Shown here: positions 6,747-33,110 of the stretch, one piece after another | How the letters are laid out: each line of letters opens with the position of its first letter | Numbering within the stretch: position 1 is the stretch's first letter | Virus record (IMG/VR): IMGVR_UViG_3300032676_001346 | Location: 1 to 36,725 of that record | DNA length: 36,725 nt | Reading direction: 5' to 3' (one strand) | Origin: a virus | Program-made: the position numbers and the translations under genes | The notes under the pieces: model-generated | What the model was told of the DNA's origin: nothing | The model's database searches: none | Seen by the model: only the letters and a program-made list of their open reading frames with translations

Positions 6747-7074
6747 ACTCCACCATACCCTTTCTCAAGGGGCTGCCGCAAGTGCCTAATTGGGCAGCAA
6801 AGAACGGGCAGGCCGCGCAGCATTTCAGGCGTGCTTGGTACACTTCCTCCGGGACGTGCTCTCCCCGGTTCTTGGCGATCCTGAACCAAACCCGCACCGC
6901 GCCAGCCAGGCGCGAGACCGATTCCGTCAACGGCTGATCGTTGAACAGGCCGAAGAAACCGGCGATGAACAGGGCACGGGCCAGCCCCCAACGCTCAGAA
7001 CCCGATAGAGACCAAGTTGTTTCTTTTCCGTCGCTCACGTCGAACCTCCTGGACCACGGCCTTGTGCATTTCAT
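6553..7074 (-). CDS. Cys-rich small membrane protein; both ends uncertain
   Basis: TM helix WGLARALFIAGFFGLF, then RLKCCAACPFFAAQLGTCGSPLRKGMVEYGCYCYQRVAARFTAKRCW (CxxCP...C...GCxC...C pattern, as in small phage/bacterial Cys-rich proteins). The ATG at 7074 overlaps terL by 80 nt. The C-terminal ~45 aa look like non-coding-frame sequence and overlap the next ORF. Confidence 0.4.
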   Translation of the reverse strand: MKCTRPWSRRFDVSDGKETTWSLSGSERWGLARALFIAGFFGLFNDQPLTESVSRLAGAVRVWFRIAKNRGEHVPEEVYQARLKCCAACPFFAAQLGTCGSPLRKGMVEYGCYCYQRVAARFTAKRCWIDERHDAGDGRVDSFLGHGWNRNGCGDAAAGHAIASSPPGATPTA

Positions 7075-8710
7075 CGTAGCATTCCTCAGACAGCGCGTAG
7101 GAGGCCGCGTCCCACGGGTGTTTGTGAATGCTCCCCTTCTGAATCAGGGCGCTCCCGGTGGCAGGCTTCCTCAAGCTCCGGTTCGCCTCGATGAGCTTGG
7201 GGCAGAGGTCGCGGGAGAAGAACGATCGCCCCTCGAAAAGCATCCGCTTCCACAGGTCAATGCGGCCGGAAAGCGTCCCCGGCCCCCGCCCGGCCGCCTG
7301 AAGCACGATCGGGGATGCCAACGTCACCGGCACGATGAGCCTGCTCTTGAGGCCCCGCTTCAACGCCGGGTTGGTGATTTCGACTTCGCCCCGCTGAATG
7401 GCCAAGGTGCTCGCCTCATAAATCAACTGGGCAAGGAACCGCTCGCTGTCCCCAGACTGGCGCCGCTCGAATACGCTCCGGTCGCTCCAGTAGGTCCACG
7501 CGACGTGCTTTGGCGGAACTTCAAGGACGTTCATCCACCAGCACATCCGCCAAATCAACGCCCATGTGAATTCCTGTAGATCGTGGGACTTCCCCACCAC
7601 CACGACTTCATCGAGGAACTTGATGATCGGTTTGGTGATCTCCTTCACCGTGCCGTCGGCCAGCGGGGTCCGCTCCACGACCTTCAACACCTTCTCGTAG
7701 ATGACCGCTGCGGAGTTGACGGAGTCGCCAGGGTCCATCCCCACCCCCAAGGCCCGGCACCCTTCCTCGGGCATCAGCAACACGGGATCAGGGTCCGATG
7801 GCGGGTTGGGGTCCTCCGGGATGACGTGGAACTTTGGCCGGAACTGCTCGTAGAACAGGGCATCGGTGGATGCCGTCACCCATTCCCCGCGCCAGTAGCG
7901 GGCAACCAGGTCATGATCGTGGGCCAGGGACGCCAGCAGGTTGTCCTTCTGCTCTTGGCTGAGGTAAACATTATCGTCGATGCCGACTTCGATCAGCCGG
8001 AGTGAGTTGCGGAGGGGTAGCAGGATCTTGGGGTCCTCAATGTCAGGGAACAGCTTGAGGATGTCGTCCAGCGTTTCGCAGTTCGGGAGTTCGTACCAGA
8101 GCTTGTAGATCCAACTAGACGATCCTGCGTCGGCCGGGTTCGTGTCCCCCAGGAACAGGCAATCGTTCGCCGGGCGGCCGCGGAAGCACAGTTTCAACGT
8201 GTCGAACGTCTTGCGGTTCTCAAACTTTGAAAGCTCGTTTACCCAGATGCAGGAATACTCCTTGCCCTTGAATTTGTCCTCAACCTCACCCTCCACCTTG
8301 AGGGATTCCAGGCTGATCTTCGTTTCATTCCCGAAACGGTTGCTGACTACGCAGGTTGGCTTTTTCGAGTTGTTGGCGATGAACGGTTTTCGCACCCACT
8401 CCATGCCGAAGTTGCCACCTTCGCCGGTTACGGGGTCCCCAATCCACTCCGGGATGTACTTGGTGGTTAGGTGCTCCCACGGGCCGCTATCGGTGCCGGC
8501 TGATTGCGTGATGGTCAGCAGGCACATGTTCCCGTGGTCGGTGTTCCAGGCGTGCTGCACAAACGCCTCCTGACACCCCACGGTTTTCCCGCTGAGGCGC
8601 GGGCCAGAGACCAACACCATGTTTCGAGACCCCGGCAAACACGCCTCCATGATCTCGCGCTGCTTGGCGCAGACGGCGGGATACCAGAATCCGTTTTGGT
8701 CAACCGGCAT
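6995..8710 (-). CDS. terL: terminase large subunit
   Basis: ATG start. Walker A is VLVSGPRLSGKTVGC. A Walker-B-like CIWVNELS follows, then LFLGDTNP. The C-terminal half carries a nuclease-type acidic motif (LGVGMDPGDSVNSAAVIY). 571 aa. Sits opposite the portal operon across a divergent region. Confidence 0.85.
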   Translation of the reverse strand: MPVDQNGFWYPAVCAKQREIMEACLPGSRNMVLVSGPRLSGKTVGCQEAFVQHAWNTDHGNMCLLTITQSAGTDSGPWEHLTTKYIPEWIGDPVTGEGGNFGMEWVRKPFIANNSKKPTCVVSNRFGNETKISLESLKVEGEVEDKFKGKEYSCIWVNELSKFENRKTFDTLKLCFRGRPANDCLFLGDTNPADAGSSSWIYKLWYELPNCETLDDILKLFPDIEDPKILLPLRNSLRLIEVGIDDNVYLSQEQKDNLLASLAHDHDLVARYWRGEWVTASTDALFYEQFRPKFHVIPEDPNPPSDPDPVLLMPEEGCRALGVGMDPGDSVNSAAVIYEKVLKVVERTPLADGTVKEITKPIIKFLDEVVVVGKSHDLQEFTWALIWRMCWWMNVLEVPPKHVAWTYWSDRSVFERRQSGDSERFLAQLIYEASTLAIQRGEVEITNPALKRGLKSRLIVPVTLASPIVLQAAGRGPGTLSGRIDLWKRMLFEGRSFFSRDLCPKLIEANRSLRKPATGSALIQKGSIHKHPWDAASYALSEECYDEMHKAVVQEVRRERRKRNNLVSIGF

Positions 8711-9413: not shown

Positions 9414-11960
9414 ATGCTCGACATGAAATTCCTCGCCTCCCGCGGCGTATCTTCCGCCGCGTGGAAGCGCATTTTCAGCGATAGCCCCGAGAACTGGCCC
9501 CCGAAGATAAAGCGCCTCATCAATCAGGTGACGGCCCGCATCCGGGACGGGCGCGTGGGCAACCTGGACCCCAAGGAGTGGCGGGCCATCGGCGCCATCG
9601 ACCGCGCTTACAGCGTCCCCTACAACCAGTCAACCCCGACCCTCATCCGGGACATCCTTGATCGCAACCTCGATCACGACGGCACCGTGGAAGCCCTCAA
9701 GGCATGGGGCTTGAACGAGGAAGAACTGTTCATGACGGTCAGGAACCCGGAGACCGGCCGGGACTGCCAGGTGCCCAACCCCCCGGTTTTCTTCCGCGTC
9801 ATCCCCAATCTGGTGAAGGCGTACACCACCGCCGTTTGCGAAAAGCTGTTCAACGCCCGCAACCAGCGCCCTCTGCTTGAGTTCAAACCCAGGAAGCAGG
9901 TTGAGCGCGACGTGGTGGAGTGCGACATCGTAACCGACCTGGTGGACGACATGGCCATGAAGATGGGCTACGCCCCCGTGCTCCGGGCCGCCATCGACCA
10001 GATGCTCAAGTACGGCGTCTGCATCGCGTTCACGAAGGAGGAATGGTACTGCGAATACCAGCGCGAGTTCGGCGGTGCCCTCGATAAGGAGGGAAAGGAC
10101 AAGGGTAAGAAACGCACCGTTAAGGAGGGCCTGCGCTACTTCATCCCGCACCCCACCCGGATGTATTACGACCTCAAGTGCCCCCTCACCAGCCTCAATA
10201 CGAACACCGGCTGCGAGTATATCGGCCACTGGCACGTCCTGAGCTACGGTCAAATCCTCGACAACCCCCAGTATTGGAACCGGAAGCACATCTTCGCCGG
10301 AACGAACTGGTTCGAGGCCCCCGAGTCCAAGTATTTCTGGCAGGAAATATACCCCTGCAAGATGAACTTCCTGCCCGGCATCGGGTACGATGGCCCGCGC
10401 CAGAGGGAGGACAAATCGGCCTTCTACAACAGCGCCGACCGGGACAAATCGATCTTCGTTGCCGAGCATTTCGAGCGGCTTATCCCTCAGGATTGGGGAT
10501 TGGGCGAGTACGACGGCCCGGTCTGGTGCCGATTCACGATGGCCGCGGACAACACGCCGATCTGGGTAGAGCCTTGCGCTGTGACCCCCGGCTTCTTCAT
10601 GGGCTACGACTACTCGGAGAATGCCGAGCGAAACCCGTCGTTCTCTCTGGAGGTAATGCCGTGGCAAGACTGGATCGGGAACATCCTCTCCCAAATCCTC
10701 CTGACCGCGAAGCAGAACCTCGTCAACGTCCTGTTTGTGGACAACCAGCAGGTGGACGCCACGATCATCAAGGAGTTCAAAAATCTTGGTGAGGGCATGT
10801 TCCGGGGTATCCAGATAATCCCCTTCGACTCCCTGAGCAACCGAGCCGGCCAGTTGGACACCCGTCAGGCGTTCATGGGGGTCAACCTCCCCAAAGCCAA
10901 CATCCAGGAGTTGTTCCAAATCCTCTCCCCGTTCCTCAACATGATGGAGCGGGTACTCCGCATCGCCGCGCAGCAGGCCGGCGGCGCCGGGCCGCACCAG
11001 CAGGGCAAGAAGGAAATCGAAATGCTGGCTGCCAGCGGGGACGAGCGGCTCAATTACATCGGGGCGGGCGTGGACGAGGGCTTGGACGCCTGGGCGATCC
11101 AACTGGTCGACGCCGCCGTGAACTACGCCGATGCCGAATTCCTCGCCCAAGTGGACGTGGACACGGAGAACCTGGAGGAACTCGCGGAGGAAATGGGATT
11201 CACCGTGGAGTCCAAAGGCAAGGACAAGGCCCTGATCAAAGGGTCGTGGCGGAAGCTCCAACTCCGGGACTTCGCCCGGACCATCGAGGGGAAGGAACAG
11301 AGCAACGACAAGGAAGCCGGGCAGGCCATCCTCAGTTGCGTTACCGCCATCAGCGGCCAGGAGGACTTGAAGAAGAAGATCGGCCCGGTGAACCTCCTGA
11401 CCATGATGGAACTGGCCACTCGGTTGATGGGCGCCCCGCGGGGCTGGCGGCTCCGGGCGTCTCAGGAGAAGGACGACGGCGGGGTCGAGCCGAAAGTCCT
11501 TGAAGCCATCCAGGCCGGGATCAAGGCTTGTATGCAGGCCATCGAAGAAAAGCTCGGCAAGCCTCTTGGTCAGGAAATGGCGCAGGTCCAGGGAGAAGTT
11601 AAGCAGATCCAGGAGGCATTGAAGCAGTTTCAAGGGGTTTTCCAGAAGGTGTCTCAGTTGGCCGACGCTCAGACGATCAAGGCGCAGGAGACGCAATCGA
11701 AGATTCAGACCCGCACCGCCGAGGTCCAGGCCGAGCAGCAGCGCAAGGACGCCGCCGCCGCCGCCGATAAGGCGCGGAAGGATGCCGAAGCGCAAGCCGA
11801 CATCGCCCGCAAGGACCAAGAGGCTCAGGCGGCCATCCGGCGCGACGAGGAAAAGCTCAAGGCCGACATCGCCGTGCAAACTCACGAAGCGGCGAGGGGA
11901 ACCGCCATCGCCCTGCACGAAGCCAAGGAGAAGGCCAAGAATTCTCCAAGTTCCTCTTGA
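9414..11960 (+). CDS. portal protein (848 aa) with long C-terminal coiled coil
   Basis: Largest gene opposite terL and upstream of the scaffold/capsid candidates. The last ~130 aa are a continuous heptad-like helix (QEMAQVQGEVKQIQEALKQFQ...KDAEAQADIARKDQEAQAAIRRDEEKLKADIAVQ), reminiscent of the P22 portal barrel. Call rests on position and size, with no motif-level proof. Confidence 0.65.
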   Translation: MLDMKFLASRGVSSAAWKRIFSDSPENWPPKIKRLINQVTARIRDGRVGNLDPKEWRAIGAIDRAYSVPYNQSTPTLIRDILDRNLDHDGTVEALKAWGLNEEELFMTVRNPETGRDCQVPNPPVFFRVIPNLVKAYTTAVCEKLFNARNQRPLLEFKPRKQVERDVVECDIVTDLVDDMAMKMGYAPVLRAAIDQMLKYGVCIAFTKEEWYCEYQREFGGALDKEGKDKGKKRTVKEGLRYFIPHPTRMYYDLKCPLTSLNTNTGCEYIGHWHVLSYGQILDNPQYWNRKHIFAGTNWFEAPESKYFWQEIYPCKMNFLPGIGYDGPRQREDKSAFYNSADRDKSIFVAEHFERLIPQDWGLGEYDGPVWCRFTMAADNTPIWVEPCAVTPGFFMGYDYSENAERNPSFSLEVMPWQDWIGNILSQILLTAKQNLVNVLFVDNQQVDATIIKEFKNLGEGMFRGIQIIPFDSLSNRAGQLDTRQAFMGVNLPKANIQELFQILSPFLNMMERVLRIAAQQAGGAGPHQQGKKEIEMLAASGDERLNYIGAGVDEGLDAWAIQLVDAAVNYADAEFLAQVDVDTENLEELAEEMGFTVESKGKDKALIKGSWRKLQLRDFARTIEGKEQSNDKEAGQAILSCVTAISGQEDLKKKIGPVNLLTMMELATRLMGAPRGWRLRASQEKDDGGVEPKVLEAIQAGIKACMQAIEEKLGKPLGQEMAQVQGEVKQIQEALKQFQGVFQKVSQLADAQTIKAQETQSKIQTRTAEVQAEQQRKDAAAAADKARKDAEAQADIARKDQEAQAAIRRDEEKLKADIAVQTHEAARGTAIALHEAKEKAKNSPSSS

Positions 11961-11964
11961 CCTT

Positions 11965-11980
11965 CTGCCCAATGCGGCAG
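11965..11980 (+). repeat. 16-nt motif CTGCCCAATGCGGCAG, copy 1 (intergenic, 15 nt upstream of ATG 11995)
   Basis: Exact match to 15140-15155. It matches the reverse complement of 23760-23775 at 15 of 16 positions. Can fold as CTGCC/GGCAG with a 6-nt loop. Confidence 0.6.
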
Positions 11981-11994
11981 TAATCTAGGGCGGT

Positions 11995-12234
11995 ATGGTA
12001 AGCCGCCGATCATTCTTCTCCCGCGTGGCCGCGTTTGTGGCGGTGATCGCGCTCGCCCCGGAGATCGCGTTCGGGAGGAAGCTGGAGATGCCATCTGTGG
12101 GGTTCCCCGATGTTCCGGGTTTGACATCGATCCCAATTTGGTTGAGATCGACCGAGGAATGGCAGCATTACACCGTGAAGTGTAAGGCATGGAGATTAGC
12201 CGTGATGCGTGAGATCGTAGATAAAATACCATGA
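11995..12234 (+). CDS. small protein (79 aa) with twin-arginine (Tat)-type signal peptide
   Basis: MVSRRSFFSRVAAFVAVIALAPEIAFG contains SRRxFF followed by a hydrophobic h-region and an A-x-G cleavage-like site. ATG start. ATGA overlap with the next gene. Confidence 0.5.
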   Translation: MVSRRSFFSRVAAFVAVIALAPEIAFGRKLEMPSVGFPDVPGLTSIPIWLRSTEEWQHYTVKCKAWRLAVMREIVDKIP

Positions 12235-12512
12235 TCACCGTCGAACCAGTCCCCCTGACCGCCGCCCAGACCAAAGACCTTTCGGCGTGGCTGGCCCGAC
12301 CCGAAGCATCCCTGCTGGTCAAAGTTCTGGAAGCGCGTGCCAAAGAGTTTGGGGTAAAAGCCCTCAACGACGCCGCGCAAACGGACGATTCCCCCATGAA
12401 GATCGACCCCGCCAACGCGGAGTTGAAGAAGGCGCAGCGGTATTCATGGGCGGCAAAAACCATCGAAGCCATGCGGGACCAAACCTCCTTTACCACGGTT
12501 AAATTATCATGA
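12231..12512 (+). CDS. hypothetical protein (93 aa)
   Basis: ATG start in ATGA overlap with the previous stop. Helical-looking, ordinary composition. Confidence 0.55.
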   Translation: MITVEPVPLTAAQTKDLSAWLARPEASLLVKVLEARAKEFGVKALNDAAQTDDSPMKIDPANAELKKAQRYSWAAKTIEAMRDQTSFTTVKLS

Positions 12513-12550
12513 AAAGAGAATCGTCCTACTTCCGAAACCTATCCTGATCT

Positions 12551-12688
12551 ATGGGACAAGCCAAAAAACGCGGGACCTTTGAGCAACGGGTAGCTCAGGC
12601 CAAATCTCGGCATCGGGAAGAGTTGAAACGGCAGACTGTAGCCAATGCTGAAAAAAGGCGGCGGTGGCAAGAAAAATCAGATGCCTAA
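12551..12688 (+). CDS. very basic 45-aa micro-protein (below the ORF-track cutoff)
   Basis: Manual translation: MGQAKKRGTFEQRVAQAKSRHREELKRQTVANAEKRRRWQEKSDA. The MGQAKKRGTFEQR-type N-terminus resembles small conserved proteins I have seen annotated as hypothetical. Lies in a low-GC spacer. Confidence 0.35.
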   Translation: MGQAKKRGTFEQRVAQAKSRHREELKRQTVANAEKRRRWQEKSDA

Positions 12689-12802
12689 AGCCCTAAATAT
12701 TCCACGCCGCACCGGCATAGTGGACTTCGCGGAAGTCCGGTTATGGCAGCAGCCTTGGTAGCCGCGTCAGCGATGTCCGACACACCAAATTACCGATAAT
12801 TT

Positions 12803-13729
12803 ATGACTACCGTTATTTACCATAGCGCCGATTTCGACGGCATATTCTGCCGCGAGATCGCACTCAAATTCCTTGGCGACAAGGATGTCAACTACATCGG
12901 GTGGAACTTTGGAGATCCTCCGTTGCAAATTCCCACCGGACCGATCTATGTTATGGACCTGCCGCTTGATGCGCCTTTTGGGTTCGACTATCACACGGCG
13001 GGCAAGGAGCGTGGCCCGCAACATCCCGCCGGTCTGGTTTGGATCGACCACCACGCGAGCAGCATCGCATCGCACCCGACCGACATCCCCGGCTACCGCA
13101 TTGACGGCGTGGCGGCGTGCCGGTTGGCGTGGGCGTGGTTTCAATCCTGCAAACAGGCAGGGAGGGACACCGCTTACGACCTTCCAACCAAGGAGCAGTT
13201 CGTCAACCGTCAAGTGCAAGAGCCGCTGGCCGTTCGCCTCGCTGGCGAATACGACGTGTGGGACAAGCGGGACCCAAACGCCGACCTGTTCCAATACGGG
13301 CTACGATCCCAGATGGTTGGACTGGATGGGCAGATCTCGCCGCGCATTTGGGGTGAACTGCTGCATCCGCGCTTAGTATCGGCGGCGATGGATATTTGCC
13401 AGACGGGGCGATCCAGCCGAACCTACGCCCAGATCGTTGACGCCAACAACATGCAGGCATCGTTCCTTACCAAGTGGGAGGGCCTGACGTTCCTGTGCCT
13501 GAACGGGCGCGGAAACAGCCTCACGTTCGCCAGTCTGGACGTGCCTGAGACCGGCCACGACGCACTGCTGATGTTCTACCTGAACGCCCATCGAGAGTGG
13601 GTGGTGAGTCTCTACCACGCCCGGCACCGGATCGACCTGGACTTGAGCAAGATCGCCGTGGCGCATGGCGGCGGGGGGCACTTGGGCGCTTGCGGTTTCA
13701 CCGTCAAAAACTTCCCATTCCCACTCTAA
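12803..13729 (+). CDS. DHH/DHHA1-family phosphoesterase (NrnA-like, 308 aa)
   Basis: Motif I is YHSADFDG (DxD). Motif II is YVMDLPLD. Motif III is VWIDHHASS (DHH). The C-terminal DHHA1 signature is AHGGGGHLGACGF (GGGH). Length is typical of stand-alone NrnA-type enzymes. Confidence 0.8.
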   Translation: MTTVIYHSADFDGIFCREIALKFLGDKDVNYIGWNFGDPPLQIPTGPIYVMDLPLDAPFGFDYHTAGKERGPQHPAGLVWIDHHASSIASHPTDIPGYRIDGVAACRLAWAWFQSCKQAGRDTAYDLPTKEQFVNRQVQEPLAVRLAGEYDVWDKRDPNADLFQYGLRSQMVGLDGQISPRIWGELLHPRLVSAAMDICQTGRSSRTYAQIVDANNMQASFLTKWEGLTFLCLNGRGNSLTFASLDVPETGHDALLMFYLNAHREWVVSLYHARHRIDLDLSKIAVAHGGGGHLGACGFTVKNFPFPL

Positions 13730-13732
13730 ACT

Positions 13733-15223
13733 ATGTTCCCCGACTTCCTCGACTCCCCCGGTCAGCCCGCCGTAACGCCCACTCCCGCCCCCGGTTCTGC
13801 CCCACCGGCCCCCGCCGACGTGCTGGAAAAGGCCAACGTCGCCCCATCTGGGGAAGCGGGTGCGGCCAAGCCTGCCGCCAAGCCACCCTCGAAGGAGGCT
13901 CTGGCCAACCTACAGGATTTCGTCGGTGAGTTCCTGGATGGCGTGGCTCCCGAGACGAAGCCCGGCGCCAAGCCCGCTTCGAAGCCGGCCGCCGGGAAGC
14001 CCGCAGGGCAGAAGCCCCCGGCGAAGCCCAAGGCCGCGCCCCGCGCCGCGACACCACCGCCAGCACCAACCGCCACGGAGATTGCCACCGCCACCGCCAA
14101 GGCTGTCACCGAGGCGCTGAGGCCCCCGGCCCCCGCCGGCCCCGCTACGCCCCCCCCCGTCGAACTGGACAAGACCGACACCCGCACCTTCACCGTCCTC
14201 CAGCACTTGGAAAAGACCAACCCCACCGAGTATAAGGGCGTGGCCGACAAATTCCGCGCCGCCCAGGTCAAATCCTACGCGTACCAAGAGAAGTGGGAGA
14301 AGGACAATCCCGGTCGAGATTTCGATCCCGAGTCCCCCGAGCATGAGGATTTCCGCAAGTCGGTGGAAGTTCCCTTCGATCAGGATGACTTCGAAGAAGC
14401 CCGCGTGGCCCTCGCCGCGGAGCGCATCGTGGCCGAGCGCATGAAGCCGCTGAACCAGCGCCAGGCCGAGGTTGACCGGGCCGAGGCTCTGCGCCAGGCC
14501 CAACCCGTCATCGCGCAGCACATCGGCACGTCCCGGAAGTCATTCTGGGGGATGATGGGGGATGAATTCAAGGAAGTCGTCACCGACGCCGGCGCTGTGG
14601 ACGGCGAAAAGCTCAAGGCGCTCGTGGAGTCCGACCCGATTAACGGCATCCGCCTGCAATCCGCCGTCGCCCTCGATAAAGAGGTTCCCGAGATCGTGAA
14701 GCTCCTGAATGACCTCGCCCCGGTGGCCAAGCCCACGGACGCGGTTTACGGCATCCACAAGGCGATCAACGATTTTGGTTTCCGCGTGGAACAATCGATT
14801 GCGGCGGAGGCCCCCGAAAACCAACTGGACGGCCGGGGACGGCCATTCCTGCCCACGGCGAAATATTACGCCCTTCCCGCCAATCAGCGCGAGAGCTATT
14901 GGACGCTGACCCCGGAAGTGCTGATCCCGCTCCGCGCCAAGCACTGGGCTGACCAAGCCGCCGCCGGGGTCGCCGCCAAGCAGACCGAGTTCGACGCCAT
15001 GCTGCGGGCGCGGGGCATCACGCCGCCCGCCCGCCCCCAAGCGGCCGCCGCGCCAGCCGCCCGCAACGGTGGCACCGCCCCGCCGCCTGAGCCTGACGAC
15101 GAGCCATCCGGCAAACCCGCCTCCCCGTCCACCGGCGCACTGCCCAATGCGGCAGCACGTCACGCGGCACATGCTCCGGGCAACGCAAATCCGATTGTAG
15201 CTTCCCTTTTGGATACCTTCTGA
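13733..15223 (+). CDS. scaffolding-protein candidate (496 aa)
   Basis: Lies between the portal module and the capsid candidate. Has Ala/Pro/Lys-rich disordered N- and C-terminal thirds and a helical, charged centre. Positional inference only. Confidence 0.5.
   Translation: MFPDFLDSPGQPAVTPTPAPGSAPPAPADVLEKANVAPSGEAGAAKPAAKPPSKEALANLQDFVGEFLDGVAPETKPGAKPASKPAAGKPAGQKPPAKPKAAPRAATPPPAPTATEIATATAKAVTEALRPPAPAGPATPPPVELDKTDTRTFTVLQHLEKTNPTEYKGVADKFRAAQVKSYAYQEKWEKDNPGRDFDPESPEHEDFRKSVEVPFDQDDFEEARVALAAERIVAERMKPLNQRQAEVDRAEALRQAQPVIAQHIGTSRKSFWGMMGDEFKEVVTDAGAVDGEKLKALVESDPINGIRLQSAVALDKEVPEIVKLLNDLAPVAKPTDAVYGIHKAINDFGFRVEQSIAAEAPENQLDGRGRPFLPTAKYYALPANQRESYWTLTPEVLIPLRAKHWADQAAAGVAAKQTEFDAMLRARGITPPARPQAAAAPAARNGGTAPPPEPDDEPSGKPASPSTGALPNAAARHAAHAPGNANPIVASLLDTF
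15140..15155 (+). repeat. 16-nt motif CTGCCCAATGCGGCAG, copy 2 (inside the scaffold gene 3' end)
   Basis: Exact duplicate of 11965-11980. A shorter relative, CCAATGCGGCA, lies at 15430-15440. Confidence 0.6.
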
Positions 15224-15336
15224 GCGATCTTTAGTGTGATGGCTTGAGAGGCTGCCACGCGGCCCCATTACACTTAGTCGGAGCGTGTCCGCCCTGACGG
15301 TCGCCGGCGGCATCGAGAGCCAAAACATTATTGTTT

Positions 15337-17448
15337 ATGGCTGCTCCCGCACCCGATGTCGCAATCTCGTGGCAACTGAATTCCAATTCCTTTGCCAAAT
15401 GCGCCCCCGCCATTGGCACCAACATTCGCCAATGCGGCACGGTCACAATCTGCAACATGAAGCCCCTGACGGCGGACGATCTCACGTCCGTTTACCAGAA
15501 GTCGGGGCAATTCCGCGTGATGAAGGCCCTCCTTCAGCACGACATGGAGTTGAAGATGTGCGCCCCGGTCCAAAACGGGCTGTACGACTTCCTCATGGCC
15601 AACAAGGTGGACCTGCACGGCAAGGTCGAGACCCGCGGGGAGCGCGGCATCGACAAGCTGGACATCATCCCCTTCGTGCTGGCGAAACGCTATCACCCGA
15701 TCAACAACGAGTATTGGATCATCACCAACGGCACGGCTGGCACGTCCGGCGCCGGTGAAAACCCCTCGGATCTGTGGTCGGTTCAGGTGTCCAGCCAAAC
15801 GGGCATCCCCGCCGACGTTCGCTCGTTCCCGCCCCGCCTCGCCGTTTACTGTGAAGGCATGGGCACCGGCGGCACGGCCACGCGCACGGCCTGGACCATC
15901 GTTTCGAGCACCCTGTCCAGCGACGGGACCTACGTCACGCTCGTTTTGGAGGACATGAACCGCGGCGCCCACTTGGCGTCCGCCAAGTCCGCTGCACCCG
16001 TCAACGGCCTGCTCGTTCGCGGCACGCCCAACGTCCACGACGCCGAGCAATGGTGCGCCGAGGCTCCGGCCTACCGGAACTGGACCAAGTTCCCGTTCTT
16101 CTTCCAGACAATCCGCAATTCGTTTTGCTGGTCCGAGCACTACCAGAAGTGGCGGAAGATCGCCCTCGAAAACGACTTCTACCGCGAGTGGTTCGACATG
16201 GACGAAGTCGAGGTCAACAAACAGTTGGCGGTGGATCACCGGAAGCGGTTTGTCCAGTCGTTCTTCCGGCAGACCCCCATCAGCAACTTCCAGACCGCCT
16301 GGGACTACGACAAGCTCGACCCGATCCCGAGCTTCAACCCCGCCGACGAAGGTTTGGCCGGCCTGGGGGTTGACGGCGGCCGATGCGTTGGCTATCGGGC
16401 GAATGCCACCGGCGTGTACGACCAGTTGGCCGAGTGCCATCGGGTGTGGGATATGCAGGGCAGCGTCCCGAGCATCGCGGACCTGGCGATCCTGCTCTAC
16501 AACATGATGCGCGTCCGGGAAGGCCGGGGCCATCCCAAGCCCAAGACCTTCGACCTGTTCACGGACAGCGTTCAGGCCGACGCGATCAACACCGCGTTCC
16601 TGGGATACTACAAGAGCCGCGGCCAGGACATGCTTCGCATCAACGTCGAGGCGGGGAAGTTCTCGAACACCAAGACCGCCGAGTTCGGGTTCCAGTACAC
16701 GACCTTCCAACTGTTCTGGCCACAGGGCGTCACCATCAACGTGATCACCCACGAGTTCTTCGACGACTGGAACACCGCCACCGCCGCCGCCGCCGCGGTA
16801 GGGGGCGCGGGATTCGCTAATTTCGCCAACACCAGCCGCGTTTGGTGGATCTTGGACTGGACCGGCATCTACCCCGGTATCATCGCCAGCAACCGCGTGG
16901 TGAACAAGACCGGCGACCTCAAGAACCTGGCGTCGATCAACCCGTCCTACGCTTGCGTGATGAAGGTTTACACGCAGGAACAGACCCTTACCTCGATGAC
17001 CTACACCGTCATCGTGGACTGCCCGGCGTCCAACGCCATCATCGAGAACATCGGCCCCGGCAGCGGCACGCCCGGCAGCGGCGGTGGCAATACCTGGCTG
17101 TCCGGCCAAGTGGTTGCCGACCCCGTGTGCGCTCCCGTCGGCTACTTCGGCGCCCTTGGTGCCCCGCAGGACGCCAGCAATGCTTGGACGACCACGACCA
17201 GCCAGCACGTTTATACGAACGCGCAGCAGACCGCCACTTGGAGCGACGGCGTGAATACTCACACCGTCACCATCCCGGCTGGCGAATTCCATTCGAGCCG
17301 AGGCCCTGACATCAGCGGCAATGGCTCCCTCATCAGCGCCGACGCCAACGCGCTGGCATTGGAAGCCGCCACCGCCCTGGCCGCCGAACAACAGTTGGCC
17401 GCCAGCCAGACCGTGGGCGGGGCCGAGCCTTCTCAGACGACTGCGTAA
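15337..17448 (+). CDS. major capsid protein candidate (about 700 aa) with C-terminal add-on module; start ambiguous
   Basis: Follows the scaffold candidate and is followed by the strongest terminator in the window. Track start 15331 is TTG, the first ATG is 15337, and another ATG at 15457 (MKPLTADDL...) follows the 11-nt motif. The C-terminal ~70 aa (TVTIPAGEF...SLISADANALALEAATALAAEQQL) match the repeat found in downstream virion proteins. HK97-fold not verifiable by eye. Confidence 0.55.
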   Translation: MAAPAPDVAISWQLNSNSFAKCAPAIGTNIRQCGTVTICNMKPLTADDLTSVYQKSGQFRVMKALLQHDMELKMCAPVQNGLYDFLMANKVDLHGKVETRGERGIDKLDIIPFVLAKRYHPINNEYWIITNGTAGTSGAGENPSDLWSVQVSSQTGIPADVRSFPPRLAVYCEGMGTGGTATRTAWTIVSSTLSSDGTYVTLVLEDMNRGAHLASAKSAAPVNGLLVRGTPNVHDAEQWCAEAPAYRNWTKFPFFFQTIRNSFCWSEHYQKWRKIALENDFYREWFDMDEVEVNKQLAVDHRKRFVQSFFRQTPISNFQTAWDYDKLDPIPSFNPADEGLAGLGVDGGRCVGYRANATGVYDQLAECHRVWDMQGSVPSIADLAILLYNMMRVREGRGHPKPKTFDLFTDSVQADAINTAFLGYYKSRGQDMLRINVEAGKFSNTKTAEFGFQYTTFQLFWPQGVTINVITHEFFDDWNTATAAAAAVGGAGFANFANTSRVWWILDWTGIYPGIIASNRVVNKTGDLKNLASINPSYACVMKVYTQEQTLTSMTYTVIVDCPASNAIIENIGPGSGTPGSGGGNTWLSGQVVADPVCAPVGYFGALGAPQDASNAWTTTTSQHVYTNAQQTATWSDGVNTHTVTIPAGEFHSSRGPDISGNGSLISADANALALEAATALAAEQQLAASQTVGGAEPSQTTA

Positions 17449-28166: not shown

Positions 28167-28508
28167 CTACACTTTCAATGGTGAGTCCGTCCACGTATAA
28201 ACGGCTTCCTCAGTTTGTGGTTGTGGTTTCTCAATCGAAGGCAATTCATCGAGCGGGCGGAACCGCTCCGGTTTGAAGCCGCGCTCCACGCCGGGGCGGC
28301 CAACGGCATCCGGGTTCCTCAATCCGACCAGCAGCACGCGGCCGGTGCCCACGCTCTGCCCGTTGCGCTGGTAAGGCTCCTGGCCGATGAGCAGGTCGCG
28401 GATGACGTAAACCTTCCCCTTGACCGGCAGAGTCGTGTACAGGGCCGCTATGGGCGGATCAAAGGTATCGTCAACGCATGCGACGTGCTGGCCAACGGTA
28501 AAGCTCAT
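28167..28508 (-). CDS. hypothetical protein (113 aa)
   Basis: The ATG at 28508 overlaps the GT2 stop (ATGA). Sequence MSFTVGQHVACVDDTFDPPIAALYTTLPVKGKVYVIRDLLIGQ... looks like a small beta-barrel. The longer track ORF (to 28841) is an out-of-frame extension over the GT2 gene. Confidence 0.5.
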   Translation of the reverse strand: MSFTVGQHVACVDDTFDPPIAALYTTLPVKGKVYVIRDLLIGQEPYQRNGQSVGTGRVLLVGLRNPDAVGRPGVERGFKPERFRPLDELPSIEKPQPQTEEAVYTWTDSPLKV

Positions 28509-29470
28509 AACGGCAACCCGAATTTCCCGCAGAACCACGCCATGTCCCGCTTGAACCGCTTCCGGTTCTCCGCCCTCGTGGTCTCGATGGTGTGAAGGTG
28601 GTTCCTCAACAGGATCATTAGGCGGTTCTGAATGTCGGCGGTGGTGTGCGCCCACAGCAGCCGCTCGTACTTCTCCGAAACGGTGTCCGGGAAAAGCAGG
28701 GTCTTGATCCCGAACAGCTTGTTCCACACCGGCCAGTGAGGATCGATCCCGAACTGCTGCCACATCGGCACCTTCCCGGAGTTGAACTTGTGCCCGATCC
28801 TCACGTTCCTCATGAACCGAACGTCGCCCCCGGATAGCCACGCGGACAGGGAAAGGCTTAGCTCGTCACAACCCCAAGCTCGGAGGTTCTTCAACGGCGC
28901 CAGTTCCAAATACCACAGCCTCGGCATGAAGTAGCAAGCGCCCATGATGGCCGGAAGTTCGCAGTCATCTACCTTCGGTTCCGTCCGGCCATTCTTGAGA
29001 TGCCACACCACTTCGAGCACCTGCATCGCCCCCCGGCCTCCGAGGTCCGGCCCGAACATGTTGATCGTGGCCCCTTCGTAAACGGCCTGGGGCTGGAGTG
29101 GGTCCATGTGCCGTTCGTCCAGCCCGAGGCAGGTAGCGCAATGGAGGGTGTGCGGACGGCCTTCAACGCGCCGCATGGCGTTCTCGTACCAGCCCTCGGT
29201 GAAGCGCATGTGGCTGTCCACAAAGAGCAGCACGTCGCTCGAGGCGTTTACCGCCCCGATGTGCCGCGATGCCCCCACGCCAATCCTGGCGCGGTTGGTG
29301 ACGAGGGTGATGCCGTCAAGGTGGGTGAGATACCTCTCAACCGAGGTATCGGAGAGGTCGTCCACCACGACGATTTCAGGATGGAACCCCGCCGTCGCCC
29401 GGATGCTCCTGACAGTGGCGATAAGCTCCTGCGTGTCGTTGTGGGTGGGGATGACGATGGAGAGGGTCAT
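28505..29470 (-). CDS. family-2-type (GT-A) glycosyltransferase (321 aa)
   Basis: MTLSIVIPTHNDTQELIATVRSI...EIVVVDDLSD...LLFVDSHMRF has the classic GT2 N-terminal signature, an acidic DD(x)D motif and a D-x-H motif, as in GalNAc-transferase-like GT-A enzymes. Confidence 0.8.
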   Translation of the reverse strand: MTLSIVIPTHNDTQELIATVRSIRATAGFHPEIVVVDDLSDTSVERYLTHLDGITLVTNRARIGVGASRHIGAVNASSDVLLFVDSHMRFTEGWYENAMRRVEGRPHTLHCATCLGLDERHMDPLQPQAVYEGATINMFGPDLGGRGAMQVLEVVWHLKNGRTEPKVDDCELPAIMGACYFMPRLWYLELAPLKNLRAWGCDELSLSLSAWLSGGDVRFMRNVRIGHKFNSGKVPMWQQFGIDPHWPVWNKLFGIKTLLFPDTVSEKYERLLWAHTTADIQNRLMILLRNHLHTIETTRAENRKRFKRDMAWFCGKFGLPL

Positions 29471-29757
29471 TTCGTTTCGTTCTGTTTTGATGCCATGTAA
29501 TCCGCTGTCTTCGGGTCAACGGCGGCGATTTCATCAAGGGTTATCCCCAAGTCAATCAGAAGACGATCCCCGCACTGCCTGAATATGGAAGGATCGAAAG
29601 ACCGTCTAAGGTCGTTTTGCTGAATCAGCCGGCCTAGCCCACGTAGAAAGTTCACGCAAGCTTTTACTTGGATGATCTTGGCCTCTTTGATTCGGGCGTC
29701 CGTCTCCTTCGGGGTAAGCCTGGACTTGAATTCTTCTTCTGTCAGTAGGTATTTCAT
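29467..29757 (-). CDS. hypothetical protein (96 aa), lower GC
   Basis: ATG start. ATGA overlaps at both ends (29754-57 and 29467-70). Helical, charged composition. Confidence 0.5.
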   Translation of the reverse strand: MKYLLTEEEFKSRLTPKETDARIKEAKIIQVKACVNFLRGLGRLIQQNDLRRSFDPSIFRQCGDRLLIDLGITLDEIAAVDPKTADYMASKQNETK

Positions 29758-29981
29758 TGGACTTGGAATGGGGATACGGGCGTAGTGGCTGCGCTGAACG
29801 TAGCCAGCATATTCAACCTGTCCATGCTAACCTCACCTGACAAGATAGCCGCGCAAACGAGATGCCGAATGGCTCCTTCAAGTTCGTCGGCGCGGAGCAT
29901 GGGTTTACCTTCAAACCTCTTACTGTGCAGTATCTCGATTGCGGCAGCGTCGTGGGCCTCGATGAGTTCTTTATCGGTCAT
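29754..29981 (-). CDS. hypothetical protein (75 aa)
   Basis: ATG start, ATGA overlap with the downstream gene, helical composition. Confidence 0.5.
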   Translation of the reverse strand: MTDKELIEAHDAAAIEILHSKRFEGKPMLRADELEGAIRHLVCAAILSGEVSMDRLNMLATFSAATTPVSPFQVQ

Positions 29982-30314
29982 AGTTCAAAGCTCTCCAGCC
30001 CGCGCAATATATCCCCCAAAGGCCAGGTCACCAGTCAGATAGTGGGCCTTACTAGAATGGGGTTTAGAAAGATCAGTTCGCGGGCTGGAAATCATAAAAT
30101 CAGTTGCAGCCGAAAGCCCAACAGAAGGCTTTCCCTTTGAATCCCACTTGGTAGATCATGCTATGGAATGGCATATACCGATCCTCCAATCCAGATACCT
30201 GCATGATCATCATGGACGGTAGGACTTTGACTTAGGACTCCCCCTCCTTCATGGGGATTACCGGAGTGCCTTCCGCCTTGGCTTCATCGAATACCTTTTG
30301 CGTGATGGGGTCCA

Positions 30315-31094
30315 TTACGCCGTCCTCCCCTTGGGCCTCACGTCGGCCAGCGCCCCGCCCCATCCGTTAAGTTCGGCGGTCCACTGCCCGTGCCATCCGA
30401 ACTGCCCGGAGTAGGGAAGATTCTCGCAACTGAACCGGGCGGCGATTTTCTCCGGCGCGAACTTGATCCCGTGTTCCTTTTCGAGCCACGATCGCCACGT
30501 CCGGCATGGGTGCATGTCCGAGGAAATCTGTCCGGCTTTGACCATCGGGTCGTCCTTGAAGTGCGCCAGGGCGTCGGCGGTGCCACAGCAATACTTCACG
30601 CTGCGGAGTGAGAACCCGCCGTTGCCTACGTTGTTGGTCTCCCCGTCGCACGCCGGCCAGCCCGGTTCGTGGTGCGGCGGCCAAGGAGATCCGATGTAGT
30701 CGTAGCTCATCCAGATGTCGCCCCAGATGTGGCCGGTAACGCCGTCCCGTTCCTGCCACGCCCACGGGTTGGCTATTCCCGAGTCCCATTCCATGAACAG
30801 GACGTGGCTGGTCTTGACGCCGTTGCCATGGCGCCCCGGCTCAACCAGCGCGGCGAACTCGTAATCCACCGGCAGGGGGTAATGGTCCGCACGGGGGCAC
30901 TTCACCTTCCGGTCACTCTCGGTGTGATGCACGGTGCGGATGTTGGACGCGCCGATGCGCCAACGCTGCGTGTCGGTCAGGAGGACCGCCTCCGCGAACT
31001 CAACGTGACGCATGGCGTCCCGCATGGCCCGCAGCGTCCGGTCAGGGTGAACTGTGTCTATGGCGAACAGGGTTACTTGGGGCAGATGGATCAT
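30315..31094 (-). CDS. DUF5672-like putative glycosyltransferase (~259 aa)
   Basis: VTLFAIDTVHPDRTL..., YIGSPWPP... and VGNGGFSLRSVKY match my recollection of DUF5672 (IGAPW / GNGGFSLR). The ATG at 31094 forms an ATGA overlap with the upstream stop. An alternative ATG lies at 31118. Confidence 0.6.
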   Translation of the reverse strand: MIHLPQVTLFAIDTVHPDRTLRAMRDAMRHVEFAEAVLLTDTQRWRIGASNIRTVHHTESDRKVKCPRADHYPLPVDYEFAALVEPGRHGNGVKTSHVLFMEWDSGIANPWAWQERDGVTGHIWGDIWMSYDYIGSPWPPHHEPGWPACDGETNNVGNGGFSLRSVKYCCGTADALAHFKDDPMVKAGQISSDMHPCRTWRSWLEKEHGIKFAPEKIAARFSCENLPYSGQFGWHGQWTAELNGWGGALADVRPKGRTA

Positions 31095-32413
31095 TTTCTC
31101 TCGCACCTTTCTTTCCATGCATCCAGGGCCACGTCGAGGGAGTCTTTATCCTTCAACCCGTGAATCCAAGCGGCATCGTGTTTGATGATGGCATCCCGTA
31201 GCGGTTCGTAATCCCGCTTCGTGATGGTGTTTTGGGCGTAGGTGCCAGGCAGGTTCCCCGAGATCGGGACGCCAGAAATGTGCGCCAGCCCGCTCAGGAA
31301 CCTGTCGTCGAACCCGCCCTCCAGAATCTCTGGGTAGCGGGCATGGGCCGCCAGCATGGCCTTGGCGCTCGCCCGGTCGAACACCAGCGGGGGAACGGCG
31401 TAGCGCGGCGAGATGAAGCGCAACGGCTCCGTATTCTGCGCCAGGCAACCCCATAGGCCCGACGCGGGCGAAATCGTTTGGTGCAGGCAGATCGAATCGT
31501 ACTCGAACCAGACCGCGTGAGCATACTGCGAGGCGCAGAACATCTTGAGGATGGCGACGATCTTCTGTGCCTTCCGGGCGCCCGCGTAGCTGTCCAGCCC
31601 CAGATGGAACGTCTGATGATCACCGGGCAGAGCCAAGGGGTGATCCGTGGGGGAGATCATCCAGATTGGAAACCCGTGGTTGCGCCAGAAAGACATGTGC
31701 CGTTCCGTGGTTTCCTTCGCCTCGGCGTGGGTAAGGACAATAGCCACCATGCCTTCGGGCGCAATGCGCTCTTGGGGGCAGGCGTAATTCGTGGCTCGCT
31801 CGATGCGGTGAGCCTCGACCGCTTTCCACCGATGCTCATACAGCCATTTATTTTTTACCAACCCGTTGGGGAAGTGGACGCATTGGCTGTGAAGGTGTCC
31901 GGCGTGGGTGACGAGCTTTGAAAGAGCAATCGGCGGCCCTTTGTGCCACGCCTGAAACACCATCAAGTCGGATGTGTGCTGCCTGCCATCGATCAGCGTG
32001 GCGCACTGATTCCCGAGCTTGAAGGCATCCAGGAACCCGGCCAGCCCCTCCCGTGTCGCGTAGATGCAGCACGGGGACGCAGGGCTTTCCAGGCAAACCA
32101 CATTGCCCGTGGGCACGTCCTCCGGTCGCAGGGAGAAGTTGATCACGTCGTAGTCAGTGAACACGCCAGGGGCAACCTGCTGGAACGCCAGCCACCGAAG
32201 CCAGCAGGACATTTCAAACCGGCGGTCGTTGACCGTGGGGAGTGCCTTGCACGTCGCCTCAATTTCGGTAAACCGGGGGTTCGCCCTAGCGTCCGCTTCG
32301 GTCATTACCCTTGGAGTGAACCCGTTGGCCTCCCACGACTCGCGCCAGCATTCAATCAGCCGGTCGGGGTAGTTTGGGGCCTTCGGGTTATCGAAGTAGC
32401 AAAAGACGTTCAT
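31091..32413 (-). CDS. two-domain putative glycosyltransferase (GT32/Gly_transf_sug-like DXD domain + second GT-A-like half)
   Basis: N-terminal half: MNVFCYFDNPKAP...CWRESWEANGF...SCWLRWLAFQQVAPGVFTDYDVIN, which follows the capsule-type DXD pattern. C-terminal half: VAIVLTHAEAKE...AVWFEYDSICL. The ATG at 32413 is in an ATGA overlap. The track start at 32449 is GTG. Confidence 0.6.
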   Translation of the reverse strand: MNVFCYFDNPKAPNYPDRLIECWRESWEANGFTPRVMTEADARANPRFTEIEATCKALPTVNDRRFEMSCWLRWLAFQQVAPGVFTDYDVINFSLRPEDVPTGNVVCLESPASPCCIYATREGLAGFLDAFKLGNQCATLIDGRQHTSDLMVFQAWHKGPPIALSKLVTHAGHLHSQCVHFPNGLVKNKWLYEHRWKAVEAHRIERATNYACPQERIAPEGMVAIVLTHAEAKETTERHMSFWRNHGFPIWMISPTDHPLALPGDHQTFHLGLDSYAGARKAQKIVAILKMFCASQYAHAVWFEYDSICLHQTISPASGLWGCLAQNTEPLRFISPRYAVPPLVFDRASAKAMLAAHARYPEILEGGFDDRFLSGLAHISGVPISGNLPGTYAQNTITKRDYEPLRDAIIKHDAAWIHGLKDKDSLDVALDAWKERCERK

Positions 32414-33108
32414 CGTATGCGTTTCCCCACGACGCAGAACAGTTTGCACGCGCCGTGCTTCGGGCTTGTGGCGGTGAACATGAATGACTTTGGAACGGTG
32501 GCTCTGAACCCCAAAGAAACCAGCATGTCACTGATGGCGTCAGGGGGGAGATACCACCATACGAGGTAGTCGTTCCCTTTGGTCATCAGAGGACGGAAGG
32601 ACGTGTACATTCCCGCCCGCAGCACTTCCGTCACCACAACGGTATCGGCCACGCGGCACGCCTCGCGCAATGCCCCGAACGGGTTTTCCAGGTGCAGCAG
32701 CACGCTCCCGAGGATGGCGATATCGACCCCGCCGTGGGCGGGGGGATGGAAGGGAAGGTCATAGATGTCCCCATAGATCGGAACGGCAGACGACCCTAGC
32801 CGCTCATGGCAGTAGCGGTATCCGTTCTTCATCCTATCAATATCCAGGAGGGACTGATCCCAGCATGGCAGCAGGTTCAACGGGTGATCCGGCGACTGGT
32901 CAAACGACGTGACAGCCTCGGCCCCCATCTTCTCCGCGTAGAAGCTCAGCGCCCCGGTCGCAGTGCCGATGTCGATCACGCGCTTCCTCTTGAAGTCCAC
33001 GCCCCCCGTGTATTCTTTCAGCACCGGGCGCAAGTCCCAATCCCCTTCCACGGTCTCGCCGCCGGGGAGGTCCATCGTGTGGTAAAAGTAGCAGTCTTGT
33101 TTTTCCAT
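32410..33108 (-). CDS. class I SAM-dependent methyltransferase (232 aa)
   Basis: Motif I is RVIDIGTATGALSFYAEKMGA. The acidic loop is VTSFDQS. The motif III/IV region is VDIAILGSVLLHLENP. The N-terminal FYHTMDLPGGETVEGDWDLR resembles CmoB/DUF1698-type methyltransferases. Confidence 0.8.
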   Translation of the reverse strand: MEKQDCYFYHTMDLPGGETVEGDWDLRPVLKEYTGGVDFKRKRVIDIGTATGALSFYAEKMGAEAVTSFDQSPDHPLNLLPCWDQSLLDIDRMKNGYRYCHERLGSSAVPIYGDIYDLPFHPPAHGGVDIAILGSVLLHLENPFGALREACRVADTVVVTEVLRAGMYTSFRPLMTKGNDYLVWWYLPPDAISDMLVSLGFRATVPKSFMFTATSPKHGACKLFCVVGKRIR

Positions 33109-33110
33109 AA

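Follow-up and report, generated by a model that had tools for sequence, protein, structure and literature searches.

Hydrolysis of short oligonucleotides is the default activity of the DHH/DHHA1 fold, as exemplified by the characterized stand-alone members NrnA, NrnB, PggH, DhhP, CnpB and the pAp phosphatases. Viral DHH phosphohydrolases already have a PHROG family of their own, and the genomes of many jumbo phages and giant viruses carry this annotation. For the jumbo-phage enzymes, Iyer et al. predicted in 2021 a role against SMODS and type III signaling (PMC7824862). More recently, Profeta et al. (2026) reported in vitro degradation of 3'3'-cyclic GMP-AMP (3'3'-cGAMP), among other messengers, by a mimivirus DHH enzyme, and used a reporter assay to show that 3'3'-cGAMP-STING signaling is blocked by a DHH enzyme from a phage (bioRxiv 10.64898/2026.07.21.739742). 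Here, we describe a further stand-alone DHH/DHHA1 protein, encoded on the IMG/VR virus record IMGVR_UViG_3300032676_001346, of which positions 1 to 36,725 were analyzed (36,725 nucleotides (nt), referred to as the window in the following). The gene lies within a phage head operon:

12803..13729, + strand: stand-alone DHH/DHHA1 phosphoesterase gene, 308 amino acids (aa); called from the open reading frame (ORF), phrog_4771, an AlphaFold2 (AF2) model, Foldseek and motifs

The viral stand-alone DHH phosphohydrolases (PHROG 4771; phage PaBG, Klosneuvirus, Marseillevirus, Erwinia phage PhiEaH1, Ralstonia phage RP12 and the 'NrnB' of Bacillus phage AR9; groups 4 and 5 of Profeta et al.) resemble the window protein in their two-lobe fold with an ordered linking helix, in size (~300 aa), motifs, encoding by viruses and horizontal spread. 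Yet, they share only 14–19% sequence identity with it and, unlike them, the window clade seems linked to phages of Verrucomicrobiota and Planctomycetota. The cellular enzymes NrnA, CnpB (Rv2837c), Pde2, DhhP and PggH have the fold, the DxD, DHH and GGGH motifs and the length in common with the window protein and provide its top Foldseek matches in the PDB, at 1e-11 to 1e-8; the window protein is 12–18% identical to them and differs in that motif I is found at residues 7–13 with no preceding N-terminal helix. Two homologues are named NrnB (COG2404) by the Joint Genome Institute (JGI), and the AR9 'NrnB' is among the structural matches; neither the NrnB-B nor the NrnB-C clade has a long C-terminal extension either (PMC12709177). 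GdpP and MAD carry N-terminal transmembrane (TM) helices, in GdpP together with a PAS and a degenerate GGDEF domain. These are absent from the window protein, because motif I starts at residue 7 of 308 aa and leaves no room for them. RecJ exceeds 550 aa and surrounds single-stranded DNA (ssDNA) with an OB-fold and extra C-terminal domains, whereas the 308-aa window protein matches the RecJ core only (target TM-score, TMt, 0.22–0.24). Lastly, CRISPR type III NrN and archaeal MAD share the DHH/DHHA1 core and act on SAM-AMP and cA4, respectively. In contrast to these host-encoded proteins, the window gene is virus-encoded, sits in a phage head operon and has no CRISPR or CorA context, no membrane anchor and no PADLOC match.

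A divergent phage clade of the DHH/DHHA1 fold

The first-pass annotation had recognized the enzyme by a DxD motif in YHSADFDG, a DHH motif in WIDHHASS and a GGGH motif, and all three are found in the 308-aa ORF, at residues 6–13, 80–87 and 288–299 (HGGGGHLGACGF), respectively. The conservation of the catalytic residues was examined in proper alignments, initially of 17 homologues (57–71% identity) and then of 60 more distant ones (35–57% identity, mean column identity 30%). Across the distant alignment of 61 sequences, and hence down to 35% identity, H7, D10, D12, G13, D82, H83, H84, D151, G290, G292 and H293 are invariant, while D52, the aspartate of motif II, is retained in at least 90%. Thus, the DxD of motif I, the DHH of motif III and the aspartate of motif IV, assigned to D151 by spacing, are all present, and the GGGH of the DHHA1 lobe aligns with the GGGGH of DhhP and Rv2837c. 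A105, C106 and E140 are additional invariant residues specific to the family. The called start codon agrees with the N-termini of the homologues (MKTTVIYHSADFDG), and the protein, which stops 15 residues past GGGH, has neither a TM segment nor an N-terminal domain or C-terminal extension.

The AF2 model (predicted local distance difference test, pLDDT, 86.6) consists of an N-terminal alpha/beta DHH lobe, a helical region leading into a long helix (residues 192–219) and a C-terminal DHHA1 lobe. Searched with Foldseek against the PDB, it retrieved only DHH/DHHA1 proteins at a probability of 1.00 (1e-11 to 1e-7, 12–18% sequence identity), including 6mtz, an archaeal pAp phosphatase, mycobacterial NrnA/CnpB, Borrelia DhhP, Vibrio PggH, TM1595, the catalytic domain of GdpP and RecJ cores. 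The best of these, 6mtz, is an uncharacterized H. pylori protein. Global TM-scores against the PDB are low (0.3–0.5), as expected because the two lobes sit at different hinge angles. Better matches (TM 0.6–0.73, again at a probability of 1.00) came from BFVD, a collection of predicted viral structures; they are annotated as DHH phosphohydrolases and belong to phage PaBG, Klosneuvirus and Marseillevirus, which reach TM 0.67–0.73, as well as to PhiEaH1, RP12 and AR9. Taken together, the gene very probably encodes a real DHH/DHHA1 enzyme that is predicted to be catalytically competent. In the model, the binuclear-metal DHH site is intact and faces the GGGH-bearing DHHA1 lobe of a soluble, ~300-aa protein, a predicted metal-dependent phosphodiesterase.

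Among the sequence models, phrog_4771 ('DHH phosphoesterase', E = 3.1e-12) is the sole one that recognizes the protein; for a subfamily, Pfam, NCBIfam and PADLOC gave nothing usable. A sequence search of the PDB produced an alignment confined to the GGGH segment, and the JGI pipeline label of the two homologues mentioned above reads COG2404 NrnB/PDE. The protein hence belongs to a divergent clade that is recognized by PHROG 4771 and by structure only.

This clade is large. A profile search of 1.84 billion representatives returned 6,830 clusters (formed at 50% identity) at E <= 1e-3 and 747 at E <= 1e-30, mostly of ~300 aa; longer family members of 409–476 aa were scanned for domain fusions and contained no additional Pfam domain. 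Pattern scans, which demand exact peptide words and thus count close relatives alone, detected a family member on 108 viral contigs of IMG/VR and produced only 10 matches in 185,579 prokaryotic species (one genome each). Nine of these 10 are contigs of metagenome-assembled genomes from Planctomycetota, Verrucomicrobiota (Opitutaceae, Limisphaerales) and a few other phyla; eight of them measure less than 20 kb and the ninth 42 kb. The remaining match is on a 137-kb contig of the isolate Geminisphaera colitermitum TAV2, where the gene has the same neighbors as on a viral contig from IMG/VR (L069); judged by this shared gene content, the TAV2 locus is probably a prophage. Among cultured phages in GenBank, no homologue above 29% identity was found. 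From these sequence searches, the clade looks almost purely phage-borne, and it probably stems from phages of Verrucomicrobiota and Planctomycetota. The phage itself appears nearly clonal across independent samples, since four contigs (L001–L004, from two JGI metagenomes and two Sequence Read Archive runs) differ from the window by 0–2 bases over up to 21 kb, with the exception of L003, whose 15 mismatches are clustered at its cut end.

An accessory gene in the head operon

The genes surrounding the DHH gene are as follows:

6995..8710, − strand: large terminase subunit (TerL; phrog_2, 1.8e-16; Terminase_3, 6.7e-5), divergent from the head operon
9414..11960, + strand: portal protein, 848 aa; weak PDB match to the VP1 portal 8zkm (E = 0.046), conserved position beside TerL
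11995..12512, + strand: two small ORFs, 79 and 93 aa, which separate the portal gene from the spacer
12513..12802, no strand: spacer of 290 nt upstream of the DHH gene, GC content (GC) 0.514
13733..15223, + strand: scaffold-like protein, 496 aa, Pro/Ala-rich ends; from its position upstream of the capsid gene and its composition
15331..17448, + strand: major capsid protein with HK97 fold, 703/705 aa; Foldseek against the PDB

The plus-strand operon thus runs from two small ORFs via the portal gene, the 79- and 93-aa ORFs, the gap, the DHH gene, the scaffold-like gene and the capsid gene to DUF5977, VWA and further structural genes. Of the labels originally given to these genes, portal and capsid are now backed by similarity, while the scaffold label derives from position and composition alone. 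A search with the portal protein gave 178 homologues, one of which carries PF16510 (P22_portal). The capsid protein, modeled from 25 homologues at low confidence (pLDDT 61), retrieved the VP1 capsid (2.6e-9) and the phicrAss001 capsid (5e-9) in Foldseek, followed by many HK97 capsids. In these comparisons, capsid protein and portal of the phage resemble those of VP1 and crAss001. The capsid protein is, together with its homologues (P0395–P0487), unusually long, at about 560–705 aa, and a subset of the homologues has a C-terminal DUF5977 repeat, which also occurs in a 666-aa protein two genes downstream of the capsid gene. For the 496-aa protein, there was no match in the Pfam and PHROG family libraries; it is 31–45% identical in relatives, and we infer a scaffold. 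The 93-aa ORF is kept in relatives as well and has a C-terminus ending in KLS.

Whether the DHH gene is a fixed part of this operon was addressed in related phages, which were collected by a homologue search with the portal, as exact peptide patterns in IMG/VR gave none. In L007–L010 (portal 42–62% identical), the gene order is the same with no DHH gene between portal and scaffold. In L008, the scaffold gene begins 3 nt after the homologue of the 93-aa ORF (p93), while in the closest relative, L007 (portal 62%), the slot is filled by an unrelated Cys/Trp/His-rich ORF of 285 aa (L007:12672-13529) with no match in Pfam or PADLOC. This unrelated occupant marks the gap between portal and scaffold as a hot spot for cargo genes. 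The slot is also without a DHH gene in L103 (portal 39% identical), whose contig (78,085 nt) bears a DHH homologue, L044, at 50% identity and ~33 kb from the portal. In the further relatives L016 and L021, the DHH gene follows just after the VWA gene. The gene is thus absent from the slot in the five closest relatives (portal 39–62%) and is found near the portal in four distant phages with portals of 24–33% identity. Among the latter, L076 has the order portal, 65-aa ORF, DHH gene, 3-nt gap and scaffold; in L015, the portal gene overlaps at its end with the DHH gene, and in L018 and L038 it directly follows the portal. The L076 copy (L076:6001-6805) is interrupted by a frameshift with a short overlap and represents either a pseudogene or an assembly error.

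Given its absence from the slot and its relocation in relatives, the DHH gene is, with good probability, an accessory and mobile single-gene module in a variable slot. The first-pass annotation had termed it a moron, inserted into the head-morphogenesis module. The absence from the slot in L007–L010 and L103 agrees with this term, while other features of a moron are missing: neither a sigma-70-like promoter nor an intrinsic terminator able to flank the gene was found in 11900–14000 (the promoter type of the host may differ), and the stop codon of the gene is 3 nt from the scaffold ATG. An autonomous cassette is hence not supported. In GC, the gene is close to the window (0.600 versus 0.609). 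As L076, L015, L018 and L038 are distant and likewise portal-adjacent, "inserted here" may rather mean kept here and lost or moved in relatives. The DHH gene is presumably co-transcribed with the late head operon, because its stop lies so close to the scaffold start, no terminator was found and the spacing is similarly tight in other phages.

Within and at the end of the spacer, three smaller features can be distinguished:

12551..12688, + strand: basic micro-ORF of 45 codons with the N-terminal motif MGQAKKRGTFEQR; coding status uncertain
12722..12738, + strand: perfect 7-bp hairpin GGACTTC-gcg-GAAGTCC with a 3-nt loop and no T-tract
12797..12805, + strand: TAATTTATG junction, i.e. stop-TTT-ATG at the DHH start; the previous gene ends 290 nt upstream

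The spacer had been noted as the longest non-coding stretch of the operon and as low in GC, and both statements hold: the runner-up among the gaps in the plus-strand operon measures 107 nt, and the spacer alone deviates from the GC of the window. A structured RNA or riboswitch was rejected, as there is no Rfam match and folding does not differ from that of shuffled sequences (z = 0.09). The spacer was also considered as a remnant of a gene present in relatives, yet it resembles none of the related loci, at the DNA level or in translation, and the sole hint in this direction is that the frame of the micro-ORF continues in-frame to the TAATTTATG junction. This micro-ORF, also part of the original description, exists at the position given. 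Its GC at third codon positions (0.457, compared with 0.68–0.84 in neighboring genes) makes coding doubtful. Residues 1–24 match phrog_35223 (E = 5.4e-4), and small phage proteins show a weak recurrence of MGQAKKRGTFEQR at their N-termini, with the similarity lying within the first 13–24 residues; weak tblastn matches are L022:9095-9169, a hypothetical protein of Stenotrophomonas phage Bhz59 and Acinetobacter phage MD-2021a. Past its TAA, the same frame is open for 36 further codons and ends at the TAA of TAATTTATG. Micro-ORF and extension (window 12551–12799) could therefore represent a split gene of 82 codons. The four near-identical contigs, compared for single-nucleotide polymorphism patterns indicative of coding, are nearly clonal and show 0 differences in the region.

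The hairpin is likewise present as described, without the significance attached to it: the window contains 20 perfect hairpins of at least 7 bp, compared with 20.9 +/- 7.3 in Markov simulations. Because of this chance-level frequency and the missing T-tract, a regulatory or terminator function was rejected. As for the junction at the DHH start, T(A/G)ATTTATG also joins the p93 homologues to the gene that follows them in L007 and L008. Such T(A/G)A-TTT-ATG junctions are recurrent in the phage family (L007:12663-12674 and 13527-13535; L008:12840-12848) and probably couple translation; two gene starts were inspected, and neither has a recognizable Shine-Dalgarno-like sequence upstream.

Possible roles of the enzyme

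The company of the DHH gene in other genomes was surveyed by calling ORFs in about 100 loci, clustering them and annotating recurrent clusters. Counts refer to genes within three genes of the DHH gene in 75 non-redundant loci and are approximate, since the ORF caller was crude and missed the DHH gene in about a dozen loci:

Homing HNH endonuclease: 7/75 loci
DnaB helicase: 6/75 loci
Minimal PolX of 189 aa (PF14791, 3.9e-12): 6/75 loci
GT2 glycosyltransferase related to window ORF 33111-34700: 6/75 loci
Portal: 4/75 loci, plus L076

A fixed functional partner can be dismissed, as no neighbor exceeds 7/75 loci. ParB, ThyX, dUTPase, dCMP deaminase, SSB, UvrD, PD-(D/E)XK, DUF2800 and DNA methylases are single cases. 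According to this inventory, the gene is found mainly in the company of DNA/RNA and nucleotide metabolism and repair, with structural modules in a minority.

Several observations on these neighbors deserve mention in their own right. The PolX proteins (e.g. L026:5655-6224) have the PF14791 thumb domain and a GS...DxE/D motif, which hints at a small repair module. Homologues of the GT2 protein (529 aa) are immediate neighbors of the DHH gene in six or more other phages (L013, L016, L021, L037, L049, L063, L101). In the window, two GT2 glycosyltransferases, a DUF5672 protein and a methyltransferase are clustered at 28505–34700 on the minus strand, and in L101 an epimerase also belongs to the glycosyltransferase cluster; modification of the virion, the DNA or host glycans are candidate purposes. 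The L101 contig, which shares structural and glycosyltransferase genes with the window, additionally encodes a giant ORF of at least 2,801 aa (L101:1-5414) upstream of its DHH homologue (62% identity). This ORF may encode an RNA polymerase of the crAss or N4 type that is packaged into the virion.

Four roles can be envisaged, which are not mutually exclusive, because one of them, packaging in the capsid, concerns the site of action rather than the substrate. We rank housekeeping turnover of oligonucleotides and nanoRNA first, based on the default activity of the fold and the nucleotide-metabolism neighbors, and hold it tentatively, at a little below even confidence, as the main role. The enzyme would hydrolyze very short nucleotides held between its two lobes, converting di- to penta-nucleotides and 3'-phosphorylated nucleotides into mononucleotides. 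The turnover of host and phage nucleic acids would provide the nanoRNA and oligonucleotides, the degradation of which the enzyme would complete, and the resulting mononucleotides could feed the nucleotide pool. The same site may hydrolyze linear or cyclic signaling nucleotides as a secondary activity, and this could even be the role that is selected. Short substrates rather than long RNA are suggested by the missing C-terminal extension, by analogy to a rule reported for NrnB (PMC12709177).

A number of findings weigh against oligonucleotide turnover as the main role. Membership of the characterized nanoRNase families is not established, since PF01368 (DHH) does not match the protein, PF02272 (DHHA1) scores 13.8 bits versus a gathering cutoff of 25.9 bits, and the NCBIfam models for NrnA and NrnB do not match either. 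The similarity to NrnA is structural only, given the missing match to a curated model and the alignment of the DHHA1 'VS-x-R' strand: 'VSMR' of Rv2837c is paired with 'VSLY' here, which places Tyr271 opposite the arginine. Moreover, the substrate range of DHH/DHHA1 enzymes is not readable from sequence, and the fold can be exquisitely specific, as seen in CRISPR NrN, which cleaves SAM-AMP only (PMC10600005). The genomic setting in this phage fits poorly as well. A place in the late structural operon, away from the replication genes, is odd for a salvage enzyme, and the salvage model offers no explanation for the portal-adjacent position in five lineages. Finally, DHH proteins that are 50–70% identical between phages with portals of 24–35% identity, along with frequent relocation, are reminiscent of counter-defense cargo.

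This last point leads to the second possibility, which is less probable than turnover, namely that the enzyme acts as a sink for immune signals, destroying host defense messengers and thereby blocking the activation of effectors. Candidate messengers are the cyclic di- and trinucleotides of the cyclic oligonucleotide-based antiphage signaling system (CBASS), the cyclic oligoadenylates (cOA) or SAM-AMP of type III CRISPR, and c-di-AMP or its linear product. Such a role is in line with the prediction for jumbo-phage enzymes (PMC7824862), with the activities of the mimivirus and phage enzymes (bioRxiv 10.64898/2026.07.21.739742) and with the SAM-AMP-specific phosphodiesterase NrN (PMC10600005). 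The statement in the first-pass annotation that no established DHH-family anti-defense protein was known is hence partly outdated. In addition, the ordered inter-lobe helix of the AF2 model corresponds to that reported for viral groups 4 and 5 (bioRxiv 10.64898/2026.07.21.739742), and a strongly conserved clade that seems nearly confined to phages and moves as a single gene through variable contexts, often beside a homing HNH gene, bears the usual signature of cargo or counter-defense genes. On the other hand, no sequence feature points to a cyclic-nucleotide substrate, and the knockout of the mimivirus enzyme had no phenotype in the native host (bioRxiv 10.64898/2026.07.21.739742). No known defense or anti-defense genes were recognized among the neighbors surveyed, most recognizable ones belonging to replication, repair and nucleotide metabolism. 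The PADLOC models, including those of defense-associated DHH proteins, do not match the protein. If the sink were real, its logic would be that of Acb1 (anti-CBASS) and Apyc1 (anti-Pycsar), i.e. a phage phosphodiesterase that removes a signal. These two are validated in vivo and have folds unrelated to DHH, Acb1 being a 2H phosphoesterase and Apyc1 a metallo-beta-lactamase (MBL). A bolder version, which we regard as somewhat less plausible still, sees the clade as a broad-spectrum eraser of CBASS, type III cOA/SAM-AMP and c-di-AMP signals that is traded as a one-gene counter-defense cassette among phages of Verrucomicrobiota and Planctomycetota, and that might even be packaged where it is welded to portal and scaffold genes.

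Third, the enzyme could heal or repair nucleic-acid ends as a 3'-phosphatase, 2',3'-cyclic phosphodiesterase or RecJ-like exonuclease/deoxyribophosphodiesterase (dRPase), cleaning up RNA or DNA ends damaged, for instance, by tRNA-cleaving or nicking host defenses, on which a polymerase or ligase could then act. NrnA-type enzymes have pAp 3'-phosphatase activity and RecJ shares the fold, which accords with this proposal. In P0004 (64% identity; European Nucleotide Archive ERZ1426827 contig), which is among the closest homologues and the closest one with a recognizable domain among its neighbors, an RNA-ligase gene (PF09414) starts 3 nt downstream of the DHH gene. In the crAss-like phage csAssE-Sib (OR575929; L102:4148-5942), a distant DHH gene overlaps the upstream gene for a polynucleotide kinase (PNK)/3'-phosphatase beside four tRNA genes. 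The minimal PolX in 6 of the 75 loci and the occasional PD-(D/E)XK, Pyr_excise and UvrD neighbors would also fit. Yet, the ligase and PNK links are single cases, the latter at just 29% identity, no ligase, PNK or PolX is encoded near the gene in the window, and the protein is devoid of the OB-fold and extra domains by which RecJ holds long ssDNA. End healing is improbable as the role of the enzyme.

Least credible by far is an enzyme that is packaged in the capsid, delivered with the DNA and active at the onset of infection: crAss001, whose capsid protein and portal are resembled by those of the phage, packages cargo proteins, and in five lineages (the window, L015, L018, L038 and L076) the DHH gene adjoins portal or scaffold genes, with translational coupling, but the protein has no evident capsid-targeting sequence or portal-binding domain, about 70 of the 75 loci have the gene outside the structural module, and the slot also accepts unrelated genes, as in L007.

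Meaning for phage biology

With viral DHH genes already catalogued and both oligonucleotide turnover and signal degradation already in print, the finding is unsurprising. What is new, if modestly so, is a very large, uncharacterized clade from environmental phages with repeated placement at the side of the portal and no fixed partner. If the enzyme degrades defense signals, DHH would be the third fold in the anti-signaling set of phages after the 2H fold of Acb1 and the MBL fold of Apyc1; it would have been found in poorly studied environmental phages, and the reporter-assay findings of 2026 would become testable in a bacterial host. If it is instead a nanoRNase, many environmental phages would supply the final step of RNA and DNA recycling themselves. 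In both cases, one biochemical study of this large, strongly conserved clade, which lacks a characterized member, would provide an annotation for thousands of metagenomic proteins.

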